NCBI GenBank assembly: GCA_010015585.1
Contig: ML975153.1
Strand: one strand, 5' to 3'
Source: Eremomyces bilateralis CBS 781.70
Lineage: Eukaryota
DNA: 64,000 nt
The notes beneath the pieces are model-generated. The model searched no databases, was not told the DNA's origin, and worked only from the letters and a program-made list of their open reading frames with translations. This document shows, piece by piece, positions 1,966 through 34,600 of the stretch. How positions within the stretch are numbered: position 1 is the stretch's first letter; each line of letters begins with the position of its first letter. Both the position numbers and the translations under genes were made by a program.

Positions 1966-2585
1966 GTTGATCTAAGCGATGGTGATGGTATGGGCTAGCA
2001 GGCTTGTATGGCGCATTAGGTCGGGTAAAGCAAGGCGAGGGTGGAAGAGCGAGTAGGACGAAGCGAGGGTTGGTGGAAGGTGATCTGTTGGTATTCAGCA
2101 TCCATGAAGGGGCCTGAGAATTATTGTCGGATGCGGACATGCGCTGCTGACTCAGCCAGGCCTGATACAGTGAATGAGAGTTAGGAGACAGGTATCAAAA
2201 AGGATGTCCATCAAGGCGTAGTATATTGTCAGAGTGGCTGGTACATTCATTTATACAGCGAATACTCTTGAGCAGTATCCGTACCCTAGGGTTAATATTT
2301 GCTACGGAGTTGTTTGATGTTTACGCCTTGCGGAGAGTTGACGCTTGACAGTTGATAGCTAAGGATGCACGTGATCTAATCAAAATATTTATACCCTAAT
2401 TAGGCAAGAAGGCAGAAACAGAAACGAGCTTACAGTTCGCCCCACTCTCAGATGAACTTTCGGATGAGAGTCGCCAGCCGGCCATATGTTTTTCCGAAAG
2501 ACAGAGACCATCCACTCTCAGGTGACAATGCCCACTCTCAGATGAACTTTCCTTTTCACACTACCTTGTACCAATGTTTATCAAG

Positions 2586-2690
2586 ATGTCGTTGAGCAAG
2601 AATGTAAGTTATTCGGAAAATGTTTAGAATATATTCCTAATTAATCCAGCCTATCTACCAATCGTATTGTGCTCTGCCGTCGCGACCTTT
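2586..2690 (+). pseudogene. 5' stub of a second, convergent gene of the MULE element (MSLSKN|PIYQSYCALPSR...)
   Basis: ATG 2586; intron 2604-2649 (GTAAGT...CTAAT...CCAG) in the same 11-bp periodic style as the transposase introns; then runs into a foreign transposase remnant. Confidence 0.45.
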
Positions 2691-2699
2691 GGGCACGGA

Positions 2700-3383
2700 G
2701 CCTTGGGGGCAAGATGTAGCGGGGCACGACCGATGCAGATAATGGCTGCCATTCAAAAGGAGGATCCGAACACGCCAGTCTCAACCACCGATATTCGCAG
2801 CGAGAGGAAGGCAATTAGAGAGAAGCACTTGAATAGGAGGAGTCTGAGGAGTCCGATTAAGACATCACTAGATGACGTGTCTACGTTGACCCCTGTACCT
2901 GCCCCTATATCTTCCCCTACCCTATCTCATTTATCTTCCCCTATCTCTGTTGCTGTATCTGCCAATATGTCTCGATCCCCTCTATAGCCTGCCTGGCAAC
3001 CTCCGTCGTTGGAAGAGTTCTTTGCTGATATCGAGCGTCGACGGCTTCAGCCTACTCTGCATCACTGTAGTGACTTAAATACAGTGACCAAATTTTTGGC
3101 AGAGACAGGGCAGGAAAAGGACCCGATAGAACTGGTTGAAGCACGGAATATGGCTCTCGCTACAAGCGGAGTATATGCTCCATGTACTCCAACAATGGCA
3201 TGGAATTATAACTTTGGAGATATACAGGCTTTCTACGCTGAGAGATTCGCACAAGTTGATGCTCAAACTACTCCTTTTGAGTATCGGGATGTACCGAGAG
3301 AGCGCCCTAAGCGCGCTGCAGCAGAGAGGGCTTCAAATGCTTGGAAAGAACTCGGTCCGTGCAAGAGGCAGCGACGTCAGTAG
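2700..3383 (+). pseudogene. internally deleted remnant of a second, intronless (Hop-like) fungal MULE transposase
   Basis: ARPMQIMAAIQKEDP...DIRSERKAIREKHLN...SPIKTSLDD resembles the pre-catalytic region of fungal MULE transposases (recognised from memory). It is joined via a Pro/Ser tract to a C-terminal ORF (3009-3383). No DDE core is present. Confidence 0.5.
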
Positions 3384-3540
3384 AAAGAAGAGAGGCTTAA
3401 TAATAGAGTAGCCAATATGAGTCATTTAAGAGGAGCAGACGGAAGCCTCCCGCCGAACACACGTTAATTATGCTCCAGCTTTTGATTTGAACCTCGTACC
3501 AAAATTGATATAATTTATTCTATACTAAATAGTACAGGTA

Positions 3541-3607
3541 GGAAAAACCCATTTGGTGGGAAAAACCCATTTAGTGGGAAAATCTCATTTGGTGGGAAAA
3601 TCTCACC
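3541..3607. repeat. 18-bp tandem repeat, ~3.5 copies (GGAAAAACCCATTTGGTG variants)
   Basis: Read directly from the sequence. Confidence 0.9.
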
Positions 3608-3654
3608 TACATAATTGCCCTGGTTAAATACATTTCTAATACATTAGAAAAGCA

Positions 3655-6600
3655 TTACTCTAGTCCCCGACTTAGACTCTGGTTTTCTAACTCTCTTCTA
3701 TCATTCTCAAGTCGCTTTTGCCGTAGTTCTTCCCTCATCAACTCAATTCTTAATTGCTTTTCCGTCTGATCTAGCTCCATATCTTGCCGTTCTTGGCTTT
3801 GGTTAAGTATGTTCTCGGAGGCCATACGGCAGAGAGCGAGTGATGTATCTCTAAAATGGTAATAGATTAGATACGTATTTCCAATAAATTCTAAATTCAT
3901 TACCTCTGCGCCGATCCCCTTCGTCTTGTAGAAGAGCTGCGTGAGCTCGAAGATCTTGAAACGCGTCTTCTTTGGGGCTCTGGTGGGAGTAGCTCGGTAT
4001 CTACCGAGCCATCGTTATCATCTTCTGACTCTCGCCTCCTTGAACCTATAGAATTTCGAATACGTTAGAAATGTATTAGAATATTTCGGAAAATTTGGTT
4101 CGTACGATCTCTTCTAATAGCCTCTGCGAACCTCTCCGATAGCGACGTATTCCGCCATGAAAGCGAGATTCCATAGCCTGCCCGGCTGTTATATCTATCA
4201 ACATCATACTTATCAAGGATCTGGCTTCTATAGGGTCGTTAATATATTTCTAAAATGTTAAGAATAACTTACGAATGAATTGCTCGAAGTAGAGGGAGTT
4301 GTCGGCCAAAAGAGTTACTCTTAAAGCGTGTTTGCTCAGTAGCATTAGTGTGATTCCGAGTCCTTTCCCAGACCTCACTAGCAATCATTGAGCAATGTTT
4401 ATTAAGGCCACACGCAATTGAAGGCTGCATCTTATGCCGAGTCCACTCCTTCACACTCTCAGAGGAACTAGAGGATGCTAGACAAGTAGTAATATATTAG
4501 TAATATATTACAAATGCATTCGGTATAGATTCCATGGAGAGACGTACTGATAAGCTCATTGCAGAGCTGAAAGTAGTCCGCCTGTGATTCGCAGCGTACT
4601 AATTCCCCCATGCGTGCATGGATAGAGTTAGTATTATGGCCTGAAGTGCCTGCTGCACGATCAATGGATCGCTTGAAATGTATATAACAGAGCATGACGG
4701 TATTTCGAGCCTGCCACTCCCATGGACGATGTGAGCCATCAATTTGAGATAGATATTGGCCCCATCCTAAAACATTAATACCGCGTTTCTAATTCATTTA
4801 GAATACCTTACCTTGAAGCTGGCCTCTGTCCATATCGGTCACAATGCAGGCAAACCCAGTACCATGTAAGTGCTTCCAGCGAATTTCACGCTCGAGTTTA
4901 GAAGATAGAAGCCCAAATAGGGCTTCAAAGGCTTTCGTGTAAGCGGTAGAGCTCTGTGCATTGATGAACACTCGGGCAAATGTAAAAACTTATGAATGTA
5001 TTAGTAATACATTTATAAAAGGATTAGCGACTTGACTTACTCTTTTCGTTCTCTGGGAGGTAGGCCGCAAAGACGATCTCGTTGATGTCTTTATCTCGCA
5101 CACGTTTGAAGCCCATATCAATCTCAAAGGATTCCCGATCTAGTATTATCTTTACTTGTTCTTTGAAGAAACAAGTAACCAGAAGGTTAATACCATCGAA
5201 GTAATACCCTTGGATATACTGGAGATATGTTAGTAATGCATTTGCAATGCATTGTAAAATAATTACCTGATTCGGTTTCCCCGATTGGATCTTGTACTCG
5301 TTTTCAACAGCGGCAATTGACTGGCCAAAAGGATAGGAGAGAAGCCTCTGTTTCTTTATAAGAGCACTAATCTTATCAAGATTACTGAAGCTTTGGTGGA
5401 CATCAGCAAGAGATGTTCCTTGATGCTGTGTACAAAAACGCTGCATTTCTGGATGCCGAAGGAGACCAGCTAGAGAGGTAGAGATACATTAGAAATGTAT
5501 TTTAAATGTATTTATAATATGTTCTTACCAGTGGTAATGCTAGGATCACTAATCCTTTGAATGACTTTTACGATCTCATCGCAGTATTGCTGGGGCGTCT
5601 TCGTTGGTGGAGGTGGAGGATGTCGATGGGTGCCATGTGATAACCATATGAAGTAAGGTGTCTCGTCCATTTCAATTGAGAGATACACCGTAAATTGTAC
5701 GGTACAAGGGAGTACAACGATATCTCCCTGTCCCTGGGGATGATCAACACCTAAACTGATTTAGAATATATTATAAACATATTAGTAATGACTTACCGCA
5801 GCGTTTGGCCCTGCTATTCATCTGTTTGAGTACAGCACATGGCTCGACGACAGTGTCATGTTCTGTAGTGTTGAAGAGGGCCTTGATTTCAGTAATTCGA
5901 GGATAAAGATATCCTGGAATAGATCGGAAGAAATGTTGTGAGCCATATGTATGACGCTCACATCGGATGTAGAAGTTTGGGACGCCCGAGATAGTCTATT
6001 ATATGTTATAAATGTATTCGAAATATAGTAGAAATCAGTAAACCAAACTTACCACTTGTGAACTTTGGTAAACCTCTGGAATACAGTTCTCGTCTTGAAT
6101 GTCTTTACAAGCAGATCCCTTGCGAAAGGCTTCTATGATAGGCAGGTAAAAGCTAATACCAGTTAACGCTATATCCACTAAATGCATTTATAATTGTATT
6201 TCAAACCTATTCGCTTGCTGGGTAAGGCTCGACTGCTGATATGCATTGCGAGAATTACGTATTTTCTCCCAGTCATCTTCTTCGAAGCACGTATGCTTCA
6301 GATCGATGATATCCTGAGCGAGATATTGACACGCCTTGACGCCCGTACATCGTGCTGACATACGATAGCACCGTGCATTATCTAATATCTTCACCACTGA
6401 GGTATGCTTCGACCATTTAAGGGCAGATGAGTATTGTACCTATAATAGATTAGAAATGATTTAAGAATATATCCCTAATATATTACCAAGTCTTTATGTC
6501 GCTTTCGATCCTCGGCTGGAATGCCTTGAAGGTTGACAACATAGGCAATTCCTTTTTCTGATGTTTGAGGATAATCAGGGATCGAAGGAACATAAATGAT

Positions 6601-6829
6601 ACGCTCAACCTCAACATTGCCATGCGATGATTTAGATATAATCCATGGTTCATCAGCAGGAAGTATATCAGACTAATACATTAGTAATGTATTTGTAATG
6701 AATTATTTAGTTGAATCTCACATTGTCCTGCTGGACATTTTCGGATATTTCAGGATAGGTTTCTAGCTCATCCTCCTCAAAAGGAGTAGACCATGGCACA
6801 GAAAAACCAATGCCAGGAAACTGGGCCAT
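3655..6829 (-). CDS. MULE-like DDE transposase, 14 exons, ~829 aa, no stops after splicing
   Basis: Introns 6673-6721, 6440-6486, 6153-6206, 5996-6052, 5751-5796, 5470-5528, 5219-5266, 4989-5040, 4767-4811, 4478-4547, 4228-4272, 4046-4105 and 3851-3903 (all GT-AG) give a 2490-nt frame. Motifs: C...GTHRHPPP (WRKY/GCM-like Zn finger), FEIDMGFKR (D), IVTDMD (D), CYIHF (CxxH), TNATEQ (E), C-terminal coiled coil. Confidence 0.85.
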
Positions 6830-7057
6830 AATAAATGTATTCCTAATGCATTATGCATACAATTTGGATGGATTGGTATTGGTAAGAAAATGGGGTGTTG
6901 ATCTGGAAGAGTTCATCTGAGAATGAGAAGTAGTTTGGCTCGGGCGGGTCATGTGATGTGTTTCTATGGACCGTGCACTCTCAGTCTCAGATGAAATGAT
7001 GAATTGATGAAAGCTCAATAGCTCATCTGAGAGTGGGCCGACCTGCAGCCTCGAAAC

Positions 7058-9826
7058 CAGGGTGGAGACTTGAGCGAGTTTGAGCGAACTCAAGTCTTAC
7101 GTAATCGAGTCGCCCGACTCTACTCACACTCGTCTAAGAACCTTGGCGAGCGTGCCTGTACCGTGGTTGCGCCAACCAAATAAAGTTCCAACTTTCCTTC
7201 CTGCTTATGTATAAACAGAGATTTCGTGGTGGTGAAGATGGTGAAGAGGATGATAATCTATATTACACTACTTATCTACATAGCCTCCGTAGACGCCTGA
7301 TGATAGATAATCCTCTCGAGCTCCATATCACTGATAATACCTTGATTAAACCAATTCTGTAGGCAAATCAGTCTGTTCAACGTTTTTCCCTCCATCCGTG
7401 GCCTTTCGGTATCAAGAAGTCTCCCACAAGCTGACCAAATCCGCTCCATATCAGCGGCGGAGGAAGGAGTCGCGAAGAGGTCCAGAGCGATCTGGTATAG
7501 AGCGGGAAACCGCGTGCGATTAGCTACCCACCACGTAATAGGCGTATCAGTCTCCTCAGGGGCCTCTCGGAGATAGTAGGAGACCTCATCGGGCGTGGAG
7601 ATATTACGTGGTTCAAAACGAGGCGCGAGGGCTGCCTGGAAGGCCTTGTAGACCCTTTGGCGATCACTAGGGATGGTCTCCTGCGAGGCCTCCTGTGCAT
7701 TCTCTGCACCCGAATCATTATCCTGTATCTTGGATACATTCTCGCGGAGTTTGCGTAGGAGCTCGGCAGTCTTGTGGCTACTAGCTTCGGAGTCGTCCAA
7801 CCACGCCTTCTTGTATTTTGGGTGGAGGAGAAGGGCGAGTCTGTACGCAGGAATATCCTCCATCTTAGACCGGTATTCCTTCGCCTTAACCAGGGCCGCT
7901 TGTATGGCCCTTACGAGCTCCTGGAGCTCCTGATTCTGTGAAAGATCCGCGAGGAAACCCTCCAGGGCCCGGATAATCATAAGAAGCGATGGATACGCCT
8001 CCCAAAGAGCCCCTTTAGCACCATGGTCCGCATTCCCTTCCAGGATCCAGGTCGCATGCTTCATCGGTTCGTACAACTCGATAAGTTTCTCAAGGATACG
8101 CCAATCGTCGACGGTAAGGCCCTGAAGGTGCTGATACCGCTCGCAGTACTGATCAATAGCGACACGCAGCTTGATGGCTCGCTGGACCGAATCGTACCGC
8201 GAGTTCCACCGTGTGGCGTTCTCACGTACGATTCTAAGGGGCCGATCGGTCTTAATGGACTTTTCGTTGCCCGTCATATCCTCAATAATATCAGTCTGTA
8301 TCGTAAAGAACTCTTTCTCCTGTTTAGGACTCTTTTTGATATGACCAATGATAGCTTTAAGCTTGGTAATGGGCTCTATGTCGGTATTGGTAGGAAACCC
8401 AGAATCCAAATCCGTGTAGCCTTCAGCCCGCCTAGGTCGTATAGTATCAAGCCCATTGTCATTGCTGGCTTCGATATTAGACGAATGGTCCCTGGAAAGC
8501 TGTTGGCAAACTAAATTCACGATGTGGGTACTACAGCGTAAACGCCTTCCCGATAAAGTGAGATTTAGGAGCTTCCCAAGCTCTTTAACCGCGGTAGAGT
8601 TGTTTTCCGCGTTATCAGACATTAGGAACGCAATCCTTGCCTGTATCTCAAACGTTTGGATAGCCTTGGTAAGGAGCTGTGCGATATTGTCGCCGGTATG
8701 AGCACCTTCGATCTCCTCTAGCCGTAAGAGGATATTTTGTTGACGCGGTATTCCTTCCCCGGAGATGAAATGCGCCTCGATCCCAAGGAAAGGAAGGTCG
8801 TTCGTAGAGGTCCAGATGTCATAAGACAGTGAAACATTGCTAAGACTCCGCGAGATCTTATGAGAAACGAGACGACGACATTCCTTGTATGCGAGATCAA
8901 TTTTCTTGCGCACAGACTTATGGTTGCGTACTCCCATCTCAATCTCTCCACCACTTAAAGACTCCATCAGCGCGTTGAAGCTGTTTGACGAAGCCTGACG
9001 AAAAGGCACTCCATCAACCACTAGCCATTTCAAATAGGCTGTGTGGGCGTTGAGGAGGGTCCTCTGACGGTATCCTGTAAAATCCTCCCACGATTCTGGA
9101 TGTCCTGGAGGGATAACCTTCGATCCATGCCTGAGAAAACCGTGATCGTTTATGAGATGTCGACGGGCATTGGAAGTAGCTGATATCGAATACATCTTGA
9201 TATCGTTGATCGATTTCGCTTGAAACCAGCATTTACGACAGACCCAGTACGGTATCTCTTCCTCTGTATCGCCCATTTTCCGTACTGTAAACCCCCAGTA
9301 CCATATGGAGCTTGTCCGGTGTTTCTTCCGCATTGCTTGACGCGTTGGAGGAACGTCAACCGCATATAGACCGTATTTGTCGAGCTGAGGTCGCAGGGGG
9401 ACAAACTCTAGCAGTCGGTCTGTTTCCGTGGTATATGGGGTCTCAGACGACGAGGTCGAGGAGTACGAGTCTGTATACGATGCCATATTGATGTTTTCCA
9501 TGATCGGAATCTCGTTTTCTTGAAATCTCACGGACTTTTGGTGAAACCGGACCAAGACACAGACTTGAATTTCGGTTTTGAGCTACTGTACATTTGTAAC
9601 ATGAGCAATGAACATCGAATTTCGACATGAAGCCGTCATTGCTATGTAATTCATATGGTTTTATAGCCATAACGAGCAAATCTGGGGTCCAAGTCCAGCA
9701 AGATTGGTAGACTAGTATGGAAGAGGATTAGCGGGAGACTCGCTACGAATCTTGAGCGAGCATCGAGCGAGTCCTTGGCGAGCGAGTGCAAATGAAGCGA
9801 GTGGCTCGACTCAAGTCTCCAGCCTG
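7058..9826 (-). mobile_element. full-length hAT transposon (2769 bp)
   Basis: 17-bp TIRs CAGGGTGGAGACTTGAG (7058-7074) / CAGGCTGGAGACTTGAG (rc of 9810-9826), 1 mismatch. Perfect 8-bp TSD CTCGAAAC at 7050-7057 and 9827-9834. Subterminal GAGCGAG repeats at both ends. Confidence 0.96.
7276..9501 (-). CDS. hAT transposase (BED finger, DDE, hATC dimerisation domain); frame open to 9555, first ATG 9501
   Basis: IWYWG...WVCRKC...NARRHLINDH (BED), SLSYDIWTS (D), MSDNAENN (D), RLRCSTHIVNL (CxxH), TRWNS, PITWW...RFPALYQIALDLFATPSSAADMERIWS (E). Confidence 0.94.
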   Translation of the reverse strand: MENINMASYTDSYSSTSSSETPYTTETDRLLEFVPLRPQLDKYGLYAVDVPPTRQAMRKKHRTSSIWYWGFTVRKMGDTEEEIPYWVCRKCWFQAKSINDIKMYSISATSNARRHLINDHGFLRHGSKVIPPGHPESWEDFTGYRQRTLLNAHTAYLKWLVVDGVPFRQASSNSFNALMESLSGGEIEMGVRNHKSVRKKIDLAYKECRRLVSHKISRSLSNVSLSYDIWTSTNDLPFLGIEAHFISGEGIPRQQNILLRLEEIEGAHTGDNIAQLLTKAIQTFEIQARIAFLMSDNAENNSTAVKELGKLLNLTLSGRRLRCSTHIVNLVCQQLSRDHSSNIEASNDNGLDTIRPRRAEGYTDLDSGFPTNTDIEPITKLKAIIGHIKKSPKQEKEFFTIQTDIIEDMTGNEKSIKTDRPLRIVRENATRWNSRYDSVQRAIKLRVAIDQYCERYQHLQGLTVDDWRILEKLIELYEPMKHATWILEGNADHGAKGALWEAYPSLLMIIRALEGFLADLSQNQELQELVRAIQAALVKAKEYRSKMEDIPAYRLALLLHPKYKKAWLDDSEASSHKTAELLRKLRENVSKIQDNDSGAENAQEASQETIPSDRQRVYKAFQAALAPRFEPRNISTPDEVSYYLREAPEETDTPITWWVANRTRFPALYQIALDLFATPSSAADMERIWSACGRLLDTERPRMEGKTLNRLICLQNWFNQGIISDMELERIIYHQASTEAM

Positions 9827-10393
9827 CTCGAAACAGTATGATATGCAAATCACATGATATTTTAGTGTGCACGTGATTGATCTGATGATTGCACAATTGG
9901 TGCCTCAGTCCACAAGGCATCCACCGGCGAAGTCGCCAGAACAACGCAACAGCTTCTGCCTCTTGGGGTTCTCTGCATTCTGAGCCTCTGAGCTGTTCCT
10001 TTGACATTCACTTTATCAAATACCTGTCCCGGTATCTAATCCATTTAGTCAACTCATCTTCCAATCCCTCCTTTCGATCCTCTTCCATCATCCGTGCTTG
10101 CCGCATTCCTTTCAACCCATCATCCCAACTCCGCTTGTGCTTCTCCTTCCTCCCTTTCGCCTTGGCTGCTAGCTAAACGCGCTCATCCGTCACCCATCCG
10201 CGTCAGACGTTTGCCTCCCCCGATCCCCAACTCCGAATACCTCTGCTCCTGCTGCATCCAGCTCCGTCGACATCCAGATCCGTCCGCCATCTGCGCCCGA
10301 TCTTTCGAAAGTCCACGGACTCGTTTCCGACCGTTGTCTCGACTCCCGAACACCCCATCCATATTCCCCCTTCGAGGTGGTTGCGTTGCCGGC

Positions 10394-27255: not shown

Positions 27256-27458
27256 ACTTTTCTCCCAACTCAAACTTAAATCACATGATATTCACGTGAG
27301 TTTCACGTGATTTCCGTTCCTTCACCCCAACCTTCGTCGACATCGCGATCGCCGCCCGATTTAGCCCGTATGATATGATTCTAACGAGCTATGAAACTAC
27401 ACGCTCGGCATCGTTCACTCGCCGTTCGCTGACACCGCCTGATTCTGACCCCGCGCCT

Positions 27459-27540: not shown

Positions 27541-29688
27541 GAGAAAAAGAGGAGGGATGCGAGGGAAAAAAAAGAGGCGAAGTCTCCCCATCATTAAGCG
27601 ATCAATGTTACAAAGGGTCGGTTTTCAATGTCTCTCGCCCTATTTGCGCTCTGCTAGCCAATCTACTTTGTATATCTAGGCCGCGTTTACTTCCCCTTAA
27701 TGTACCGTCCATCCCTCTTCTATTGACCAGTCCCAACGTTCCGCGTCTTAAATCATCCCCTCGCTCAGCCGTTCTAGCCTATTCTCGGCGGCGACCATAG
27801 GCTCGGGCACTCGATTACCGATAATGTCCCTTTCTCGCGCTCGAGACAGAAGCATGATCCCATCTAGGGATGGGCAGCGCGATAGTTGTACGTATAGGCC
27901 GTAGGCATCGCATTGACTGGGAACGGCCTGGCCATCGATGTTCGTCGTCCTCGCGCCGCGAAGTTCTAGCGCCACTCGGTCTAACGTCTTTCCTTGCACC
28001 TTATAATCCGTAGAGGCGAACGCCGCTGCGCACGGTAATCCTCGCCGGCTGACGGCGTGCATCTGCCACGGCCGCTTTCTCTAGGAGTCGATTTTGACAC
28101 TGACGGGTGCCAGGAGGATAGTGCCGGCTAGCATGCCCACGAAATCGTAGTCTCTCGTCGTCTCGGACGCCAGCACGATCCCGGCCGGAGGCCCGAAGTG
28201 GAGCATGGTATCGGCGTTGACGCGATGCCCGGGGAATTTCAGGTCGAGGATGACGTCTAACGCCGTATAGCGGGCGCCATTGACCAGCTTCAGGCCTTGG
28301 TGGGTGTTTTGATTTACGGTGATGGGCATCCCCTGGACGAACATAAAGATGGCGGGGACGGGGATGGCGCTGTCGTCCCCCTGACTTAACAGCATTAGGG
28401 CCTCCTCCTCCGTAGGCTGGCCATCTTTCCACTTGTGCTCGGACATGAAAATCCGAAGCACGCTTTGCCTTTGGCGTTGGAAGGACAGCGTGGCTTCGAC
28501 GTTCAGATTCCAGCGGTTCCGATTCAGCGGCGTGATAACCGTGATGCCGGACTCCCATGGGATACGTCGACCTTCCTGGTAGCACGTGTCGTTCAGAAAA
28601 TCCATATCGGACTGATCTTGTACGCCGTGCCGGATCCGCCTGAGGAGTTGCTGGAGTCGTGGATCTCCGGCGGCACGGACTTGTTCGTCGAGCATCACGA
28701 CCGTAGTAAACTTGTTCCACAGCGCGTGCGCTTTGTCGTGCTGGTGCCTCTGCTCTGCTCGGAAAGCTGTATCGTCGGTCCACGCAATAACTTGGCTGGG
28801 GAGAAGGATGGACCGCTCCTGGACCGGGCGGAACTGGCGGAAATCCCCGCAGAACACGATAATCGGGATCCCGCCAAAGTCGTCCGCATACCCTCGAAGT
28901 CGGCACAGCTGTTCGTTTACCATATACAGCGTCCGCGCACCCAGCATACTGACCTCGTCGATAATGAGCAGGAGCTTTTCCTACCACACGGCCCGGCTTC
29001 GTCCATCGACGCGGAGATTAGTTGAACTCCTAGGCGCGAATCTCTCCAGGTCCGTACTCCGACCCACCGACCGAGTCGTGTCTTTCGAGAACCCGCACGC
29101 GGAATGGATAGTAACCCCATCAATATTGGCTACCGCCGTTCCCGAGGTCGCTGTAACCAGTAGGCGGTGCGGGATCCCCTTCCTCGCGAACAGCGCCGCG
29201 ACCGCTCCGATGATCCGTGATTTTCCCGTCCCGCCCTCACCTCCAATAAATTGGCAGAGCTAGGGAACTCCGGACTCGTCGCGGTGGACCCGGTCTAGCT
29301 GGCGGCAGATAAGTCGAAATGCGATACTCTGCTTTCGATTCAAGGTAAACGACTCCTCTGCTAACTCCTTCCCAACCGCAGAAAACGATGTGGAGGGACC
29401 GAGCTGGACATTCATAGATGGACCGGCGTCCTATCCCGGGCCTTCCTCATCGGGAGCGGTGAAATGGACGTCGTGCTCCCCGAAACCGTCCGGCGCCCTG
29501 AACTCGGTAGTACTCTCCCCGACCGGCCCCTGAATCCCTTGGATCATCCTCTCTCTCTCGCGCGAGACGCTCTTTTGCTGCGCCTTAATCGACTTCAGCA
29601 GCTCCTGTGCCGGCACGACCGACGCCGCTAACTCGGTATACCCGTCTTCTTGGGTGCTAAGAGTTCCTGGCCCTTGCTCGAGGATGGT

Positions 29689-30530
29689 NNNNNNNNNNNN
29701 NNNNNNNNNNNNNNNNNNNNNNNNNNNNNNNNNNNNNNNNNNNNNNNNNNNNNNNNNNNNNNNNNNNNNNNNNNNNNNNNNNNNNNNNNNNNNNNNNNNN
29801 NNNNNNNNNNNNNNNNNNNNNNNNNNNNNNNNNNNNNNNNNNNNNNNNNNNNNNNNNNNNNNNNNNNNNNNNNNNNNNNNNNNNNNNNNNNNNNNNNNNN
29901 NNNNNNNNNNNNNNNNNNNNNNNNNNNNNNNNNNNNNNNNNNNNNNNNNNNNNNNNNNNNNNNNNNNNNNNNNNNNNNNNNNNNNNNNNNNNNNNNNNNN
30001 NNNNNNNNNNNNNNNNNNNNNNNNNNNNNNNNNNNNNNNNNNNNNNNNNNNNNNNNNNNNNNNNNNNNNNNNNNNNNNNNNNNNNNNNNNNNNNNNNNNN
30101 NNNNNNNNNNNNNNNNNNNNNNNNNNNNNNNNNNNNNNNNNNNNNNNNNNNNNNNNNNNNNNNNNNNNNNNNNNNNNNNNNNNNNNNNNNNNNNNNNNNN
30201 NNNNNNNNNNNNNNNNNNNNNNNNNNNNNNNNNNNNNNNNNNNNNNNNNNNNNNNNNNNNNNNNNNNNNNNNNNNNNNNNNNNNNNNNNNNNNNNNNNNN
30301 NNNNNNNNNNNNNNNNNNNNNNNNNNNNNNNNNNNNNNNNNNNNNNNNNNNNNNNNNNNNNNNNNNNNNNNNNNNNNNNNNNNNNNNNNNNNNNNNNNNN
30401 NNNNNNNNNNNNNNNNNNNNNNNNNNNNNNNNNNNNNNNNNNNNNNNNNNNNNNNNNNNNNNNNNNNNNNNNNNNNNNNNNNNNNNNNNNNNNNNNNNNN
30501 NNNNNNNNNNNNNNNNNNNNNNNNNNNNNN
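29689..30530. other. assembly gap (N run)
   Basis: Ns. Confidence 1.
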
Positions 30531-31207
30531 AGAGACGACTTCTACCTGTGATAACGGCCGCTCCGTGAAGATCCGGTTCGCGATTCTCATCAAAAACTGG
30601 CGTGTTTGGTTCTCACTACCGTTGCCCGTTATCGGGCCATCCGTTGCGCCCTCCTGCCGCTCCGCCGTCGCACCGTTATGAGCCGAGATGAGTTCTGCCG
30701 CTGCGGCCACCCGTTTTGACACCGGATCCTCGACTTTGGTTGCATAGTTCGTCAGGTAAAAGACGAGAGCCATGGTCTTACACTGCGTTCCGATGAACGA
30801 AATATCATGGTTATGACGCAGCCCTACCGCGATCGCCTTATTCCATCGATTCACCATGCTATGCGTCCGCCGAATCTGCAACACTCCCTCCTCGGTAAAC
30901 GCCGTCCTCTCTACCAATTTCCACGGCGCCTTAAACCGGCACAGGTCCTGATTCCTTCGTGTTTGCCCGTTAATAGAGTACTTTACACACGTCGGGCTAT
31001 GGGTGTGGATCTGCGTAGCCCCAGCGCAGAGGTTGGCCTCCTCTTCAAACGCGGCGGCGAATTGCTCGCGATTAGCTAGCAATGGCGATATGTCCGACGT
31101 TACGGACCGTTCCGCCCGAACGGCGGAAAATGCCTCGTAATCGAGATCCTACATCGTTTAGCCTTACTTTCGACTACCGTTGCTTTATATGGTTACGATA
31201 GGGCGGA

Positions 31208-31633
31208 NNNNNNNNNNNNNNNNNNNNNNNNNNNNNNNNNNNNNNNNNNNNNNNNNNNNNNNNNNNNNNNNNNNNNNNNNNNNNNNNNNNNNNNNNNNNN
31301 NNNNNNNNNNNNNNNNNNNNNNNNNNNNNNNNNNNNNNNNNNNNNNNNNNNNNNNNNNNNNNNNNNNNNNNNNNNNNNNNNNNNNNNNNNNNNNNNNNNN
31401 NNNNNNNNNNNNNNNNNNNNNNNNNNNNNNNNNNNNNNNNNNNNNNNNNNNNNNNNNNNNNNNNNNNNNNNNNNNNNNNNNNNNNNNNNNNNNNNNNNNN
31501 NNNNNNNNNNNNNNNNNNNNNNNNNNNNNNNNNNNNNNNNNNNNNNNNNNNNNNNNNNNNNNNNNNNNNNNNNNNNNNNNNNNNNNNNNNNNNNNNNNNN
31601 NNNNNNNNNNNNNNNNNNNNNNNNNNNNNNNNN
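31208..31633. other. assembly gap (N run)
   Basis: Ns. Confidence 1.
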
Positions 31634-34600
31634 AGCGGGTCCGAGATCGCCAGCCGTGCTCGCTTGTACGCTAGATCTAGACTCGTTAAGAAGGCTTCAG
31701 CCACCTCTGGATCCCGGGTCCGATACGCAGCAAGCCGGAGCTTGATCGGATTGGTTATATCGTTCGGATTCAGCGTGAACCAGATTGCCGGAATACCATC
31801 CCGAATGATGAGGGACTGGATCTTGCGCCGCATGCTTAAACGACTCTCCCTCGACATCGGCTGGCGATATCCATACAGCGATAGGCTCCTTAAGAGCCTA
31901 TTAACGTCCTCGTCGCTCGTCGTTCGCGAGACCTCTAATTCGCCCTTGGCACGCTCTAGCCGCTCCGCGTTCAGCGAACGTACGATACACTCGACTGCGG
32001 GGAAATCTTTCCTTGCGACACTCGCCATACTGGCACGGCGATTCCTTGACCGGACGCCTACATTAAAAACAAGAAAGGGAAAGATGTGGTATAACGCGAA
32101 TCGACCACCGTGACGCTAGAGGACTAGTTTAGCCCACGTCTCGAGGCTCATGTTCCGTGATATAATAAGGCCCCTCAGCCGATCAGCCGCTTCGATGCCT
32201 ACGTCCCTCGCCCCAGCGACGTCCTGGATGCTCTTATCCGCCTGAAGTGGGCCCCCACGACCGAGAGGGAACAGCGTTGGGAACGTCTTTGCGAAAAACC
32301 GTGCATCGAACGGATCGGCAAAGTCCTCGCCCCGGTTTACCACGATATACGGCTCGGCACCGTTCCAACGCCGCACCTCTGCCGTCCCACCCCGTCGTTT
32401 ATTACCCGGATCCTGTTGGCCTAGTGCGTCACGAACGTACTGTAACTTCTCCCCGTTCGCGATATCCGGTCCCTTATCTAGTGCGAATATGCCAGATGAA
32501 CTGGTTTCATGAACGGGGACTGCAGCATCGCCAAGGACCCTATCCCTATCCCTATCGGTAGCATCGCCCTGTTCCATTTCTTCTGTTACCTCCTGGCTAG
32601 TCTCGATATCGTCCCCCTGACCTAACGTAGCCAGCACTTCTCGAATATCTACTGCTTCTCCCTCGTCTAGGCCACGCTCCGTAGACGGGACTACCTGCCC
32701 GGTTCGTGCCTTCTCCTGCGCCGACGGCTCGTCCCGTCTTAACCGCTCATATACTCGAGATGGTACCCCGTGTAAGGGCGCATCCCAGCTGTCCAATTCC
32801 GCCACGTCGATCTCGATGTGCCTATATAGCGGATTATGCCGCTTTAGCTACACTAGTGCTTTCTCTACCACCCGACGCCGAACCGATAGAAGGACCGATA
32901 GATCGCTTGGTACTGGCTTCTCCGACCCCTGCCAGGACATATGAATCTCGTCGACTACCTTCAGGAGCGGATGCGGGAGGACGTTGGCCACCAGCTCCTG
33001 CACGTTATTTGGGAAGACGGTGATATGCCCCTTAACATGCCTTCTATACCTTACTCCTTGCCTCGGACCATTAGGGATACTATACTAGGCGATGAAGCCG
33101 TAGCACGAATTCAGCGCGATAAGCTTCTCCTCGATCGGCGTCAGATCCTTCAATTCACCGGGGAACATATGCTCGTACCCGAGTCGGTCGTGTAACTGGG
33201 CGGCTAGAGATAGACTACCTTTCTCTAAGTGCTTCAGACAGGAACCACACCCGTCAATGCTCTTCCCGATAGGGAAACACTTGATACATTGAAAAGGTGA
33301 ATCTTGACGCTTCTCAATAGGACTACCGATCCACCGCTGCCATGCTACTTCCTGTAGCTCGATCCGACCGTACTTGCCATAACAAAACATGCAAGTGAGT
33401 ATCGGCAACGTGTTCACATCATGGAACGCTTCATAGAACTCCTGGACGGTATTAACCTTGCTCCTGGTTGGGATCGGCGCACACCACGCCTGGTTATAAG
33501 AGAGCTGCTCTTTCTCGGCAAATTCGTTATCTAATCCACGCATAACGCCGTCGAGCTCTCTCCTTTGCTCCTCTTCACTCCACTCCGAACGGTCCGCTCT
33601 TCGGACGCGTTTGGAGGGCGTCTTACGAGAAATGGCCGACCCGGACCTCCTCCGTCCCAAATGGGATCGGTTCGCTACGACCGCAGGGCTGATCTCGCTC
33701 GAACCGTGCTTAGTACTACCAGCTACCTCGCCGGACGACGTCGCCCTCGGCATCGCACTCGGCGTCTGAGTCCGCCGGCGGCGGGATCTCCCATCTATTC
33801 TGGCCTGCTCGTCTTCTCTCTCGAATTCTTCAGCAATGTCCACTGACGTCCGAAGACCTAGGCCTGCGAGCACTGATCCATCCCGGTTCGGATTTCGACC
33901 TTCTTAACCGTCTTCGAACTCCCGCTCCATCGTGTTAAGGACACTAGCAGGTGTCCGCAACTCTATACCCGCCTGCGCCATGCGCTCCCGATATAATGCG
34001 CTCTAACGACGGAACCGGTCGGATGAACTCCCCTCGCCTTGACAGTGGCCCTCCATAACGGATTCGAATCAATTGAAGTACCGGCTTATCTAGATTCGTA
34101 ACTCCTGTCGCGATATACAGGCTATCCTCTTAAAACTCGAACTAATCAGTCGACCGAACAGTATCCCTTATCCCGTCCTGGCTCTGTAGACTACTTACGA
34201 TCCCAATCCCTCCCCCACTCCACCACCGTTCAACCGCAGACACGATCGCCCCCTAAGTCCTGGATCCCTTCACCTTGAACGCTACGAAACTTGGTCAACC
34301 AGCCTATCAATCTACGACTTCCAACTTTCCCCCATCATACCAGTCCGAACTCGTATTCTCATCTATCTTCTACGACTCATCTTCCGCGAAATTCGCTCCC
34401 CGTGACACGGCAACGTGCATGACATATCACCAACCCGCGCTCCGCGCTCTATTGTGTAACCTGTCTTATAGAATCTATTCCAATATTACGTCAACTTCTC
34501 TTTCTTTCTCCCGTCCTTTCCCCTCTTTCCCTCTCTTCCCTCTTCATTAATTGATCAGCCGACCCCTCTTTGCCTTTTATTTCCCTCATAACATCAGATA

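Follow-up and report, generated by a model that had tools for sequence, protein, structure and literature searches.

Proteins of the Mutator superfamily are defined by a C/DxxH helical insertion that follows the second catalytic Asp (PMC7780238). One branch, MuDRF, was described from basidiomycetes and Naegleria as elements with a single ORF, whose one protein unites a GCM domain with a DDE transposase, and with 9-bp target site duplications (TSDs) (PMC3164196). The MULE Muta1 carries tandem 12-bp subterminal repeats that raise transposase binding and excision (PMC5499845), and plant VANDAL elements set a precedent in that their introns contain arrays of element-specific motifs to which an element-encoded protein, VANC, binds (PMC5735166). 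Here and below, these four accounts are cited from part of their text. Our searches of the open-access PMC and bioRxiv literature turned up no account of transposase introns that carry phased arrays.

Here we describe such arrays in a 64,000-nt window, by which we mean the whole stretch of DNA analysed, from contig ML975153.1 of Eremomyces bilateralis CBS 781.70. The gene that carries them is the transposase of a cut-and-paste DNA transposon of the Mutator superfamily, most likely in the GCM-domain MuDRF branch. The arrays, which were absent from an earlier, sequence-only reading of this DNA, are its most unusual feature and the likely reason for its richness in introns.

The spliced gene and its element

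Removal of 13 GT-AG introns (45–70 nt, GC 0.19–0.31) from the minus strand, between the ATG at 6829 and the stop at 3655, leaves 14 exons that total 2490 nt and encode 829 aa plus one stop, with no internal stops in the spliced frame; the longest open frame in the unspliced gene is 154 aa. A 2556-nt contig of run X1 matches the gene with its introns skipped and with no other letters reported on it. This contig prints the splice joints of introns 5–13 (nine joints), and the removal of introns 1–4, whose joints are unprinted, agrees exactly with its length and with the depth in two bins (for introns 3 and 4, removal is read from depth). X1 is not on record as RNA, and its source is possibly shared with the genome itself; our sole ground for treating it as RNA is that it skips host introns as well. 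The joints, length and depth thus bear out the stop-free model of the sequence-only reading and confirm that the gene, split into 14 exons, is spliced correctly, being transcribed from the B end of the element and spliced at 13 conserved introns. Against these 13, X1 lists one and four splice joints for two neighbouring host genes, the two to which our comparison of intron richness is limited; a consensus intron scan of the remaining window is insensitive, recovering 3 of the 13 transposase introns. Two further candidate introns were rejected, one behind the stop (3620–3658), which is retained in the X1 contig, and one before the ATG (6821–6860), where the contig keeps most of the segment. A public 472-aa gene model (P0001), labelled “MULE transposase domain-containing” in UniRef, corresponds to the C-terminal half of the transposase.

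The gene lies within a 4.6-kb Mutator-like (MuDRF-like) element (2426–7052) with termini 5′-GAG..TRCAG (inverted repeat I2), placed between two host genes, in their divergent promoter region. Its terminal inverted repeats (TIRs) are 33 bp long and identical at 27 of 33 positions (A end, 2426–2458, plus strand; B end, 7020–7052, minus strand, 5′ of the transposase). The same terminus is found in MITE-like copies and, in two metagenome loci (L057 and L058, one of them at dS 1.17), upstream of the homologous gene. These MITE-like derivatives share both element ends and retain array-bearing segments, a retention that counts once because they seem to share one deletion history. When we looked for an 8–11-bp TSD at the window element, we found only an exact 5-bp flank repeat (2421–2425, repeated at 7053–7057; 8/11 if extended), possibly a short or decayed TSD, on a flank that later received a hAT element. 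Four other two-ended elements of the family, which are decayed or nested, had neither an 8–11-bp TSD nor a 5-bp flank repeat, and a loose terminus pattern gave 63 matches vs. 47 for the control, with no clean TSD. The neighbouring hAT (7058–9826, minus strand; 768-aa ORF; PF05699, E = 6e-17) has an 8-bp target duplication (7050–7057, 9827–9834) that covers the terminal 3 nt of the Mutator-like element; the hAT was inserted later than the Mutator-like element.

Inside the A end, CTCAG(A/G)TGA sub-repeats (2441–2551, plus strand, at 2443, 2513 and 2533; repeat families D5 and D9) have counterparts near the B end (6905–6922 and 6982–6995), and similar motifs are present at the ends of L057, L058 and L034. 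These are likely classical transposase sites, and such ordinary sites being already provided counts against the docking-site reading of the arrays that is set out below. A second, convergent gene is represented by a remnant of its first two exons (2586–2720, plus strand; X1 joint 2603–2650), the intron between which (2604–2649) holds an 11-bp array. In the distant element L066 the second gene is long and consists of very short exons, with array-bearing segments that resemble introns; a search of G000, which holds one copy of the transposase element, found no fuller second-gene copy of the window lineage. Behind the remnant lies an inserted piece of another multi-copy element (2721–3607, plus strand), with dozens of matches at 73–87% in G000, which includes a C-terminal fragment (~2721–3460), by resemblance presumably Hop/FAR1-like, and 18-bp terminal repeats (3538–3607). 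The latter were tried as an end of the Mutator-like element and rejected, since they belong to another family (9-bp TSD at the copy in L053).

Fold, motifs and relatives of the protein

The order of motifs proposed by the sequence-only reading, HxHPPP, D, D, CxxH and E, was found again in the spliced protein, distributed over exons that all lie on the minus strand. Exon 1 (6722–6829), at whose residue 1 the L034 and L057 alignments begin, and exon 2 (6487–6672) are followed by exon 3 (6207–6439), with C129 and C135; exon 4 (6053–6152), with C191 and C199; exon 5 (5797–5995), with the conserved C221, H230, C262 and C275; and exon 6 (5529–5750), with H317-x-H319-PPPPP (5628–5620) and the end of the GCM-like zinc domain. 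Exon 7 (5267–5469) encodes a helical region preceding the core, exon 8 (5041–5218) the catalytic D451 (5119–5117), exon 9 (4812–4988) the catalytic D528 (4836–4834), and exon 10 (4548–4766) C562-xx-H565 (4689–4678) and the start of the helical insertion. Exon 11 (4273–4477) supplies W620, W645, the catalytic E656 (4337–4335) and R659 (4328–4326), and exons 12 (4106–4227), 13 (3904–4045; a low-complexity linker) and 14 (3655–3850; coiled-coil tail and stop) complete the protein.

Full-length independent homologues are collinear with the window protein across aa 29–820, and 653 homologue clusters were found at E ≤ 1e-3. In ungapped rows, the DDE residues are conserved in 58/61 (D451), 64/66 (D528) and 63/65 (E656) relatives, and the CxxH residues in 61/67 (C562) and 62/67 (H565). 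In the insertion before the catalytic Glu, W620 is present in 64/65 and W645 in 43/67 (aromatic in 62/67), and both are candidate counterparts of the conserved W401 of Muta1. Residue 659 is Arg in the window protein vs. His in 56/65 relatives. An AlphaFold model (pLDDT 87.7) placed helices after the CxxH, and its best structural match was ISCth4, both by Foldseek (E = 2.7e-5) and by VIA (Z = 11.0, rmsd 5.9, 246 aligned); this is the RNase H fold with a helical CxxH insertion that had been expected of a structure prediction, and together with the TIRs it upholds the assignment to MULE/IS256-type transposases. In the ESM Atlas, the nearest named clusters are MULE (TM 0.66–0.74). For the N-terminus, it was the homologue P0005 that matched the GCM domain 1odh (Z = 8.9, rmsd 3.8, 137 aligned), and the Cys/His residues of this zinc region, with the HxH motif, are conserved in the window protein, in keeping with an N-terminal zinc finger of the WRKY-GCM1 class. 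The protein thus begins with a multi-zinc region, for which the homologue shows a GCM fold, and continues with the RNase H core that holds D451/D528/E656, the helical insertion with its CxxH, and a coiled-coil tail.

Sequence-level searches returned little. The Pfam MULE models PF10551 and PF00872 reached their cut-off in 0 of 68 members (best E 0.036 and 0.1, from single members), and Pfam gave nothing meaningful on single exons or on P0001 and P0002. GCM had zero matches at the sequence level (an ESM lead at 0.87 was weak), a PF03615 (GCM) profile search of G000 matched neither the family nor the controls and therefore says nothing either way, and when solved structures were searched by sequence with each of the two alignments, only weak low-complexity or chance matches came up. 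A single-protein search for related loci yielded 2 loci out of 30 candidate stretches. The nearest named relatives are ascomycete, with agaricomycete proteins also among the relatives. The clade, which the sequence-only reading called poorly catalogued, is missed by Pfam; it has probably been named already, as MuDRF (PMC3164196, in the part cited here).

Phased palindromes in the non-coding stretches

The arrays consist of an 8-bp quasi-palindrome, AATRYATT, phased at 11 bp in the introns, in the 5′ and 3′ UTRs and at the far end of the element, with 2–4 copies per non-coding stretch at a spacing of exactly 11 bp and one array per ~230 bp. They are carried by introns 1 (6673–6721), 2 (6440–6486; the segment is retained in the MITE-like derivatives), 4 (5996–6052), 5 (5751–5796), 6 (5470–5528), 7 (5219–5266; 48 nt, in frame), 8 (4989–5040), 9 (4767–4811), 10 (4478–4547), 11 (4228–4272), 12 (4046–4105) and 13 (3851–3903), all on the minus strand; the array of intron 3 (6153–6206), which has a non-consensus GTTTGA donor, is the weakest, with motif matches 12 apart. 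Further arrays lie directly upstream of the ATG (6827–6860, ~200 bp from the B terminus) and at and behind the stop codon (3627–3656, retained in the X1 contig). All 26 loose AATRYATT matches in the window fall inside the element (local-shuffle mean 0.3), and 19 of the 20 exact sites in G000 are within family loci (control pattern, 1); the exons of the window copy showed no enrichment.

Five related elements have identical 11-bp phasing, some with another word, and intron positions are common to four of them; these positions were called by using the window protein as the query, a choice that biases the calls toward agreement. Lag-11 z was 8.0–11.2 in five elements vs. 1.3 in host introns confirmed by RNA (n = 5) and 0.6 in predicted ones (n = 10). 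Over 58 introns, cores were spaced by 11 nt 84 times, by 22 nt 48 times and by all other distances 20 times; one doubtful, GC-rich L058 intron call (after aa 16) was dropped before these statistics. The word differs while the period is constant: AATRYATT in the window, AACRYGTT in L035 and CATATG in L066 (z = 5.8, on introns picked by hand, 2 of 10 of which have no defined end). Palindromic 8-mers are modestly enriched in some elements (z 1.1–3.0), and in L066 z is 6.4. Within elements, co-variation of core positions 3 and 6 did not exceed chance, and positions 4–5 are often non-complementary. An introner origin of the arrays was rejected, host introns having no array copies; on that question PMC12130899 gave no passage on MULEs.

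We read the arrays as double-stranded-DNA docking sites for a dimeric element-encoded protein, one per helical turn and all on one face, with a probability of roughly 0.55. Two candidate binders have about even odds: a VANC-like anti-silencing or activating factor encoded by the second, convergent gene, and the zinc region of the transposase. From what is known of the family, the transposase would bind the TIR and sub-repeats, excise the element and its MITE derivatives and insert both elsewhere; the element-encoded dimer would dock on the phased arrays, with binder and array word co-evolving and the array doubling as branch point and acceptor. We propose that the many tiny introns are retained because, within a coding gene, it is introns that offer room for arrays. 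Although the window element retains just a stump of the second gene, the RNA-type run X1 contains its transposase in spliced form, and expression at this locus therefore needs no second-gene binder. This weighs against docking, as do the unenriched exons, the core positions that co-vary no more than by chance or are often non-complementary, and the modest palindrome enrichment in some elements. More tentatively, this fungal Mutator lineage may have made its introns a self-recognition code, with both genes studded with the element's own phased palindrome and read by a co-evolving, element-encoded protein whose role is to maintain expression of the element or to direct the transposase to the element's own copies.

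The same periodicity could act through DNA mechanics, with phased A/T dinucleotides bending DNA or disturbing nucleosomes every ~230 bp and so shielding the gene from silencing, like the PATC introns of C. elegans. AA-N4-TT is indeed the invariant part, at a near-helical period, in five of six elements, the arrays occupy introns of an expressed transposon gene, and PATCs, in the cited part of their description, are reported to derive from a Helitron minisatellite and to have an insulating role (bioRxiv 10.64898/2026.08.08.743475). We consider this improbable: L066 retains the 11-bp period with CATATG and zero AA-N4-TT pairs, PATCs are 10-bp periodic, extended barriers whereas the window arrays are strictly 11-bp and of 2–4 units, and bending needs no element-specific words.

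An effect at the RNA level, in which tandem branch-point-like units, hairpins or sites for RNA-binding proteins tune transposase splicing, would account for the CTAAY-like branch sites at unit junctions, for the last unit often lying 2–4 nt before the intron end and for each unit being nearly self-complementary. This too we find rather improbable, since the mean folding z was only −0.25 to −0.86 in five elements, hairpins would allow other loop lengths where the spacing is almost only 11 or 22, and the arrays also occur in unspliced UTRs and MITEs and read alike on both strands. A neutral origin, in which the introns go back to an old array and stay alike through slippage and through gene conversion among them, would produce near-perfect tandem introns such as L057 intron 1 and L058 intron 5, and many core variants are indeed of the C-to-T type. 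Period and register are maintained across proteins 27–73% identical with saturated synonymous sites, intron length stays near 45–70 nt, CATATG copies in L066 are enriched outside masked introns as well (10 vs. 1.35 expected), and the array word is absent from host introns and from the neighbouring hAT, all of which make neutrality a poor candidate.

Mobility, meaning and comparison with known systems

The sequence-only reading had called the transposase potentially active. Its frame is intact, it is spliced, it bears no RIP-like signature and its dN/dS against L057 is 0.145; against activity stand the single copy, the imperfect TIRs, the missing 8–11-bp TSD, Arg659 and the broken second gene. 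RIP on the transposase CDS was rejected from indices (TpA/ApT 0.70, (CpA+TpG)/(ApC+GpT) 1.40) read against generally known thresholds. That the window copy can transpose still is doubtful, and it is probably a late, possibly crippled survivor that has lost most of its second gene. A single-copy, intact, spliced gene with this dN/dS, with Arg at a conserved His position and with another intact paralogue (L034) that has Gln at the catalytic Glu, would also fit a domesticated host gene, that is, a GCM-type DNA-binding regulator derived from a transposase with mobility lost, for which the WRKY-GCM1 MULE transposases of fungi are a precedent (PMC1702500). We hold domestication to be quite unlikely in view of the TIRs at both ends, the identical terminus flanking homologues in other samples, the MITE-like relatives that share both ends, the retained DDE triad and four further paralogues broken by stops, frameshift or insertions.

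Taken alone, the transposase adds a new member, probably ascomycete, to a Mutator branch that is thinly described and that Pfam misses; this has annotation value and is unsurprising. If the arrays are co-evolving, element-specific binding sites, they would represent a fungal case of sequence-specific self-recognition or counter-silencing, which we otherwise found described, in open-access PMC and bioRxiv, only for plant VANDAL elements. Docking, if true, would give a concrete selective reason for 13 introns at fixed positions across proteins 44–73% identical. A self-recognition code would be an independently evolved fungal counterpart of VANC anti-silencing, with introns retained as carriers of DNA-binding sites and not for splicing. 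The window locus offers a practical entry point, being intact and spliced, with natural non-autonomous derivatives and relatives that have different words.

Among described systems, MuDRF shares with the window family a GCM DNA-binding fold and DDE in one protein (the GCM fold being seen on the collinear homologue P0005); both are fungal and far from ordinary MULE profiles, a likeness drawn by description only (PMC3164196). The window family differs in its ascomycete nearest relatives, 13 array introns, second convergent gene and lack of a detected 9-bp TSD, and the cited part of the MuDRF account gives no introns, arrays or second gene (PMC3164196). ISCth4/IS256 (PDB 6xgx, 6xg8) has the RNase H core, DDE and CxxH alpha-helical insertion of the window protein at 10–12% identity, without its zinc region or introns, and is prokaryotic, ~400 aa long, with an HTH-type N-terminus and copy-out/paste-in transposition (PMC7780238). 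Muta1, from Aedes aegypti, is likewise a MULE with a conserved Trp and DDE, and its repeats lie within the TIR only (PMC5499845), whereas the window arrays run through the whole gene in its introns. PATC introns also combine a helically phased A/T signal with transposon derivation and a tie to silencing escape, but in the part of their account cited here they are extended, have a 10-bp period and no short protein-binding word, and were co-opted by host genes (bioRxiv 10.64898/2026.08.08.743475); the window arrays are short, 11-bp-phased and built on an element-specific palindrome. The VANDAL/VANC system is from Arabidopsis, has 8–9-bp non-palindromic motifs for which the cited part of the account describes no fixed 11-bp phase, and has had binding and anti-silencing shown (PMC5735166), whereas for the window element we infer both. 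In each, an element has its own short motif, which is arranged in tandem within introns and elsewhere in the non-coding sequence and differs between related elements (PMC5735166 for VANDAL).

The spliced transposase and its class

Splicing of the minus-strand gene at 6829-3655 reproduced exactly the 14 exons, 2490 nt and 829 aa plus one stop that the sequence-only reading had put forward. All 13 introns, whose donors and acceptors were tested by reading of the strand, are GT-AG, with introns 1-7 at 6721-6673, 6486-6440, 6206-6153, 6052-5996, 5796-5751, 5528-5470 and 5266-5219, and introns 8-13 at 5040-4989, 4811-4767, 4547-4478, 4272-4228, 4105-4046 and 3903-3851. A single 2556-nt contig from sequencing run X1, which we took to be RNA by guess (five host introns are likewise skipped in it), covers the gene without reported mismatches. 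The joints of introns 5-13 are seen in this contig, and removal of introns 1-4 with a contig end at 6857 reproduces its length and bin depths exactly (103.7 at 5924-6400; 102.3 at 6401-6877), although X1 is one run whose independence from the source of this genome is uncertain. The public gene model P0001 (UniRef label "MULE transposase domain-containing") spans aa 358-829 with mostly identical junctions, and separately annotated fungal proteins are colinear over aa 29-820 (P0154, E 1e-131; P0005, E 4e-131); together with the X1 contig, these support the gene model.

A search with P0001 returned 653 clusters at E ≤ 1e-3, annotated "hypothetical" in nearly every case; named relatives come from Plenodomus, Polytolypa, Coccidioides, Hypoxylon and Taphrina, with agaricomycetes more distant. 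Structure prediction, proposed earlier as a check, placed the P0001 AlphaFold model (pLDDT 87.7) closest to the IS256 transposase ISCth4 (Foldseek E 2.7e-5; by VIA, Z 11.0, rmsd 5.9, 246 aligned), followed by Hermes and P, and the ESM Atlas neighbours of the transposase are MULE clusters. Residues D451, D528, C562, H565, W620 and E656, kept in 91-98% of ungapped alignment rows, stand in the arrangement described for ISCth4 in excerpts of PMC7780238. The structure of the full-length homologue P0005 matched GCM domain 1odh (Z 8.9, rmsd 3.8, 137 aligned), and the Cys/His pattern of this region is retained in the window protein. MuDRF, in excerpts of PMC3164196, is defined by GCM plus DDE, is described from basidiomycetes and Naegleria, and is called "a distant branch" of MuDR; judged by this makeup rather than by sequence alignment, the transposase probably belongs there. 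The description of a poorly catalogued clade holds for Pfam, where none of 68 family members reached the cut-off of the MULE models, although the clade has probably been named already. The terms "intron", "GCM" and "MuDRF" are absent from the main text of PMC6446971.

Arrays of 11-bp period in the introns

Element-specific 11-bp arrays make up the transposase introns. A repeat finder detected an 11-nt-spaced motif along the whole gene, a feature missing from the sequence-only reading, and when pooled intron interiors were autocorrelated, lag 11 (z 8.5) gave the single peak, repeated at its multiple 22 (z 4.5); autocorrelation of the transposase exons gave no lag-11 peak. Each unit consists of AATRYATT and 3 further nt. 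The 64-kb window has 26 matches to the double site AA-N4-TT-N3-AA-N4-TT, all within 2606-6852, compared with 0.3 expected by local shuffle and 0-2 with other spacer lengths. A genome-wide search found 20 exact double sites, versus one match for a control pattern; 19 of the sites fall in the window element, in MITE-like copies related to it or in paralogue loci, and one, on contig C26, is unassigned. Arrays also occur 5′ of the ATG, 3′ of the stop and in the second-gene intron, on average every 229 bp, and are weakest in intron 3. The MITE-like copies are composed of array-bearing pieces (B end, intron 2, A end), a makeup that probably reflects one shared history.

We called homologue introns using the window protein as query, and found position and phase to be shared for 13/13 introns in the transposase locus L034, 10/10 and 8/9 in the metagenome loci L057 and L058, and 9/13 in the transposase locus L035, the non-matching introns of L058 and L035 being displaced by 1-3 residues. 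Lag-11 z was 8.0-11.2 in these four and the window element, versus 1.3 and 0.6 in host introns, and across 58 introns 84 core pairs were 11 apart, 48 were 22 apart and 20 had any other spacing. The word is AACRYGTT in L035. The distant element L066 (27-33% identical) contains no AA-N4-TT pairs and uses CATATG, keeping the 11-bp period (z 5.8 over 10 hand-picked segments); CATATG occurs throughout both of its genes and is enriched outside the masked introns (10 versus 1.35 expected). The array design is common to the whole family, and the word is lineage-specific.

Arrays of 11-bp period with an ACGCGT core, the MCB cell-cycle box, were seen in or near other inserted elements (L034 3141-3173, L035 9036, transposase locus L036 1191). 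Outside the element, the window carries a short 11-bp-period repeat of CACGTG-like units at ~27281-27313, and an AT-rich trough at 29001-32000 (GC 0.26-0.41; elsewhere 0.5-0.6).

The element, its ends and its second gene

The element, 2426-7052, is bounded by 33-bp TIRs (27/33 identical). Its GAG..TRCAG terminus recurs 5′ of the homologous gene in L057 (73% aa identity to the window protein, dN 0.17, dS 1.17) and L058 (44%), which favours a mobile unit over a host gene; domestication of the window copy, a separate question from array function, seems to us improbable. The flanking host genes, a capping-enzyme gene (PF02940) and what we take to be proteasome subunit Rpn2, both point away from the element.

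The genome-wide copy search gave one DNA-level copy of the transposase, five diverged paralogues (on C14, C21, C43, C44 and C56) and five short non-autonomous relatives with the same ends (L021, L022, L024, L025 and L039). An 8-11-bp TSD was not found at the window element, where a 5-bp flank repeat was seen, nor was a TSD found at four further two-ended family elements. Arg stands three residues past the catalytic Glu, at a position occupied by His in 56 of 65 relatives; L034 (833 aa), the one further paralogue that is intact, carries Gln in place of that Glu. The gene is an intact, spliced Mutator-superfamily transposase. The observation and class in the sequence-only reading stand, but the "potentially active" part of its interpretation is weakened by the Arg, the single copy and the lack of an 8-11-bp TSD, and we doubt that this copy can still move.

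A hAT element at 7058-9826 postdates the Mutator-like element, since its 8-bp duplication takes in the last 3 nt of the B end. This duplication is perfect (7050-7057; 3 nt of B end plus 5 nt of flank), and a hAT-type insertion with the same arrangement occupies the same spot relative to the family B end in L024 (~5959-5966). The window hAT has an intron-less, uninterrupted 768-aa ORF and is covered by X1, and the loose end seen at 9826 hints at a further copy. In the non-autonomous copies at L021 2291-2337, L025 3745-3809 and L024 2177-2230, the first ~50-60 bp are A end and run directly into a second terminus, resembling a tail-to-head junction or insertion into the element's own end. CACGTG boxes lie within 52 nt of 7/11 family ends (window 2368 and 9870; L021, L024, L025, L057), with 3.6% of the window within 60 nt of CACGTG; this possibly reflects a preference for E-box promoters, part of the ends sharing ancestry.

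At the A end, a second, convergent gene is represented by its first two exons (2586-2720), with the intron between them spliced in X1; from 2721 on it is cut short by part of a different multi-copy element (2721-3607). L066 (2187-8509, 6.3 kb; 113-bp TIRs, 93% identical) retains a long second region, which lies on the opposite strand and has at least 12 segments resembling introns, so the complete form probably has two genes. The second gene of L066 has very short exons, and in-frame stops occur in the L066 transposase. Over window 2586-3460, a spliced transcript (joint 2603-2650) seems to be made from the A-end promoter, starting in the stump of the second gene and heading toward the foreign fragment and the transposase 3′ end, with convergent or antisense transcription possible. 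An end of another family (GGCTG-GTGAGATTT type, with a 9-bp TSD in L053) starts within ~50 nt past the transposase stop at window 3538-3607, L034 3240-3295 and L036 6500-6640, in opposite orientations among the three, which suggests repeated insertion beside the 3′ array.

A putative docking function

Transposition itself would be driven by DDE chemistry at the TIRs, as family knowledge in excerpts of PMC5499845 indicates. Several features of the arrays (fixed spacing of one turn, a word with two-fold symmetry, independence of strand, occurrence in unspliced parts and a sequence that differs by lineage) speak for putative dsDNA docking sites for a dimeric protein evolving with the element, a reading to which we assign a probability of about 0.55. 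Counting against docking, the word is not enriched in exons of the window copy, array cores show no co-variation within an element, and palindrome enrichment is weak in two elements. The binder could be the second-gene product or the zinc region of the transposase; against the former, the second gene is broken in the window copy and the transposase is nevertheless spliced, and against the latter, the TIR sub-repeats already resemble transposase sites.

Action through DNA mechanics, as for the PATCs of C. elegans introns, would be served by a helical A/T period, but L066 with its CATATG word speaks against it, and it is unlikely. Control at the RNA level is slightly less probable, with folding z near zero, and neutral slippage a shade less so again.

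Docking by a dimeric protein is a directly testable mechanism, for which L066 is the best source of a candidate binder. In the open-access literature searched, we found no account of phased arrays within the introns of a transposase; further records covered were PMC1702500, PMC5751038, PMC12130899, PMC4947018 and bioRxiv 10.64898/2026.08.08.743475. The precedent for the window arrays is VANDAL/VANC: in that system, according to excerpts of PMC5735166, silencing is lifted by an accessory protein that binds intronic arrays of motifs specific to the element.
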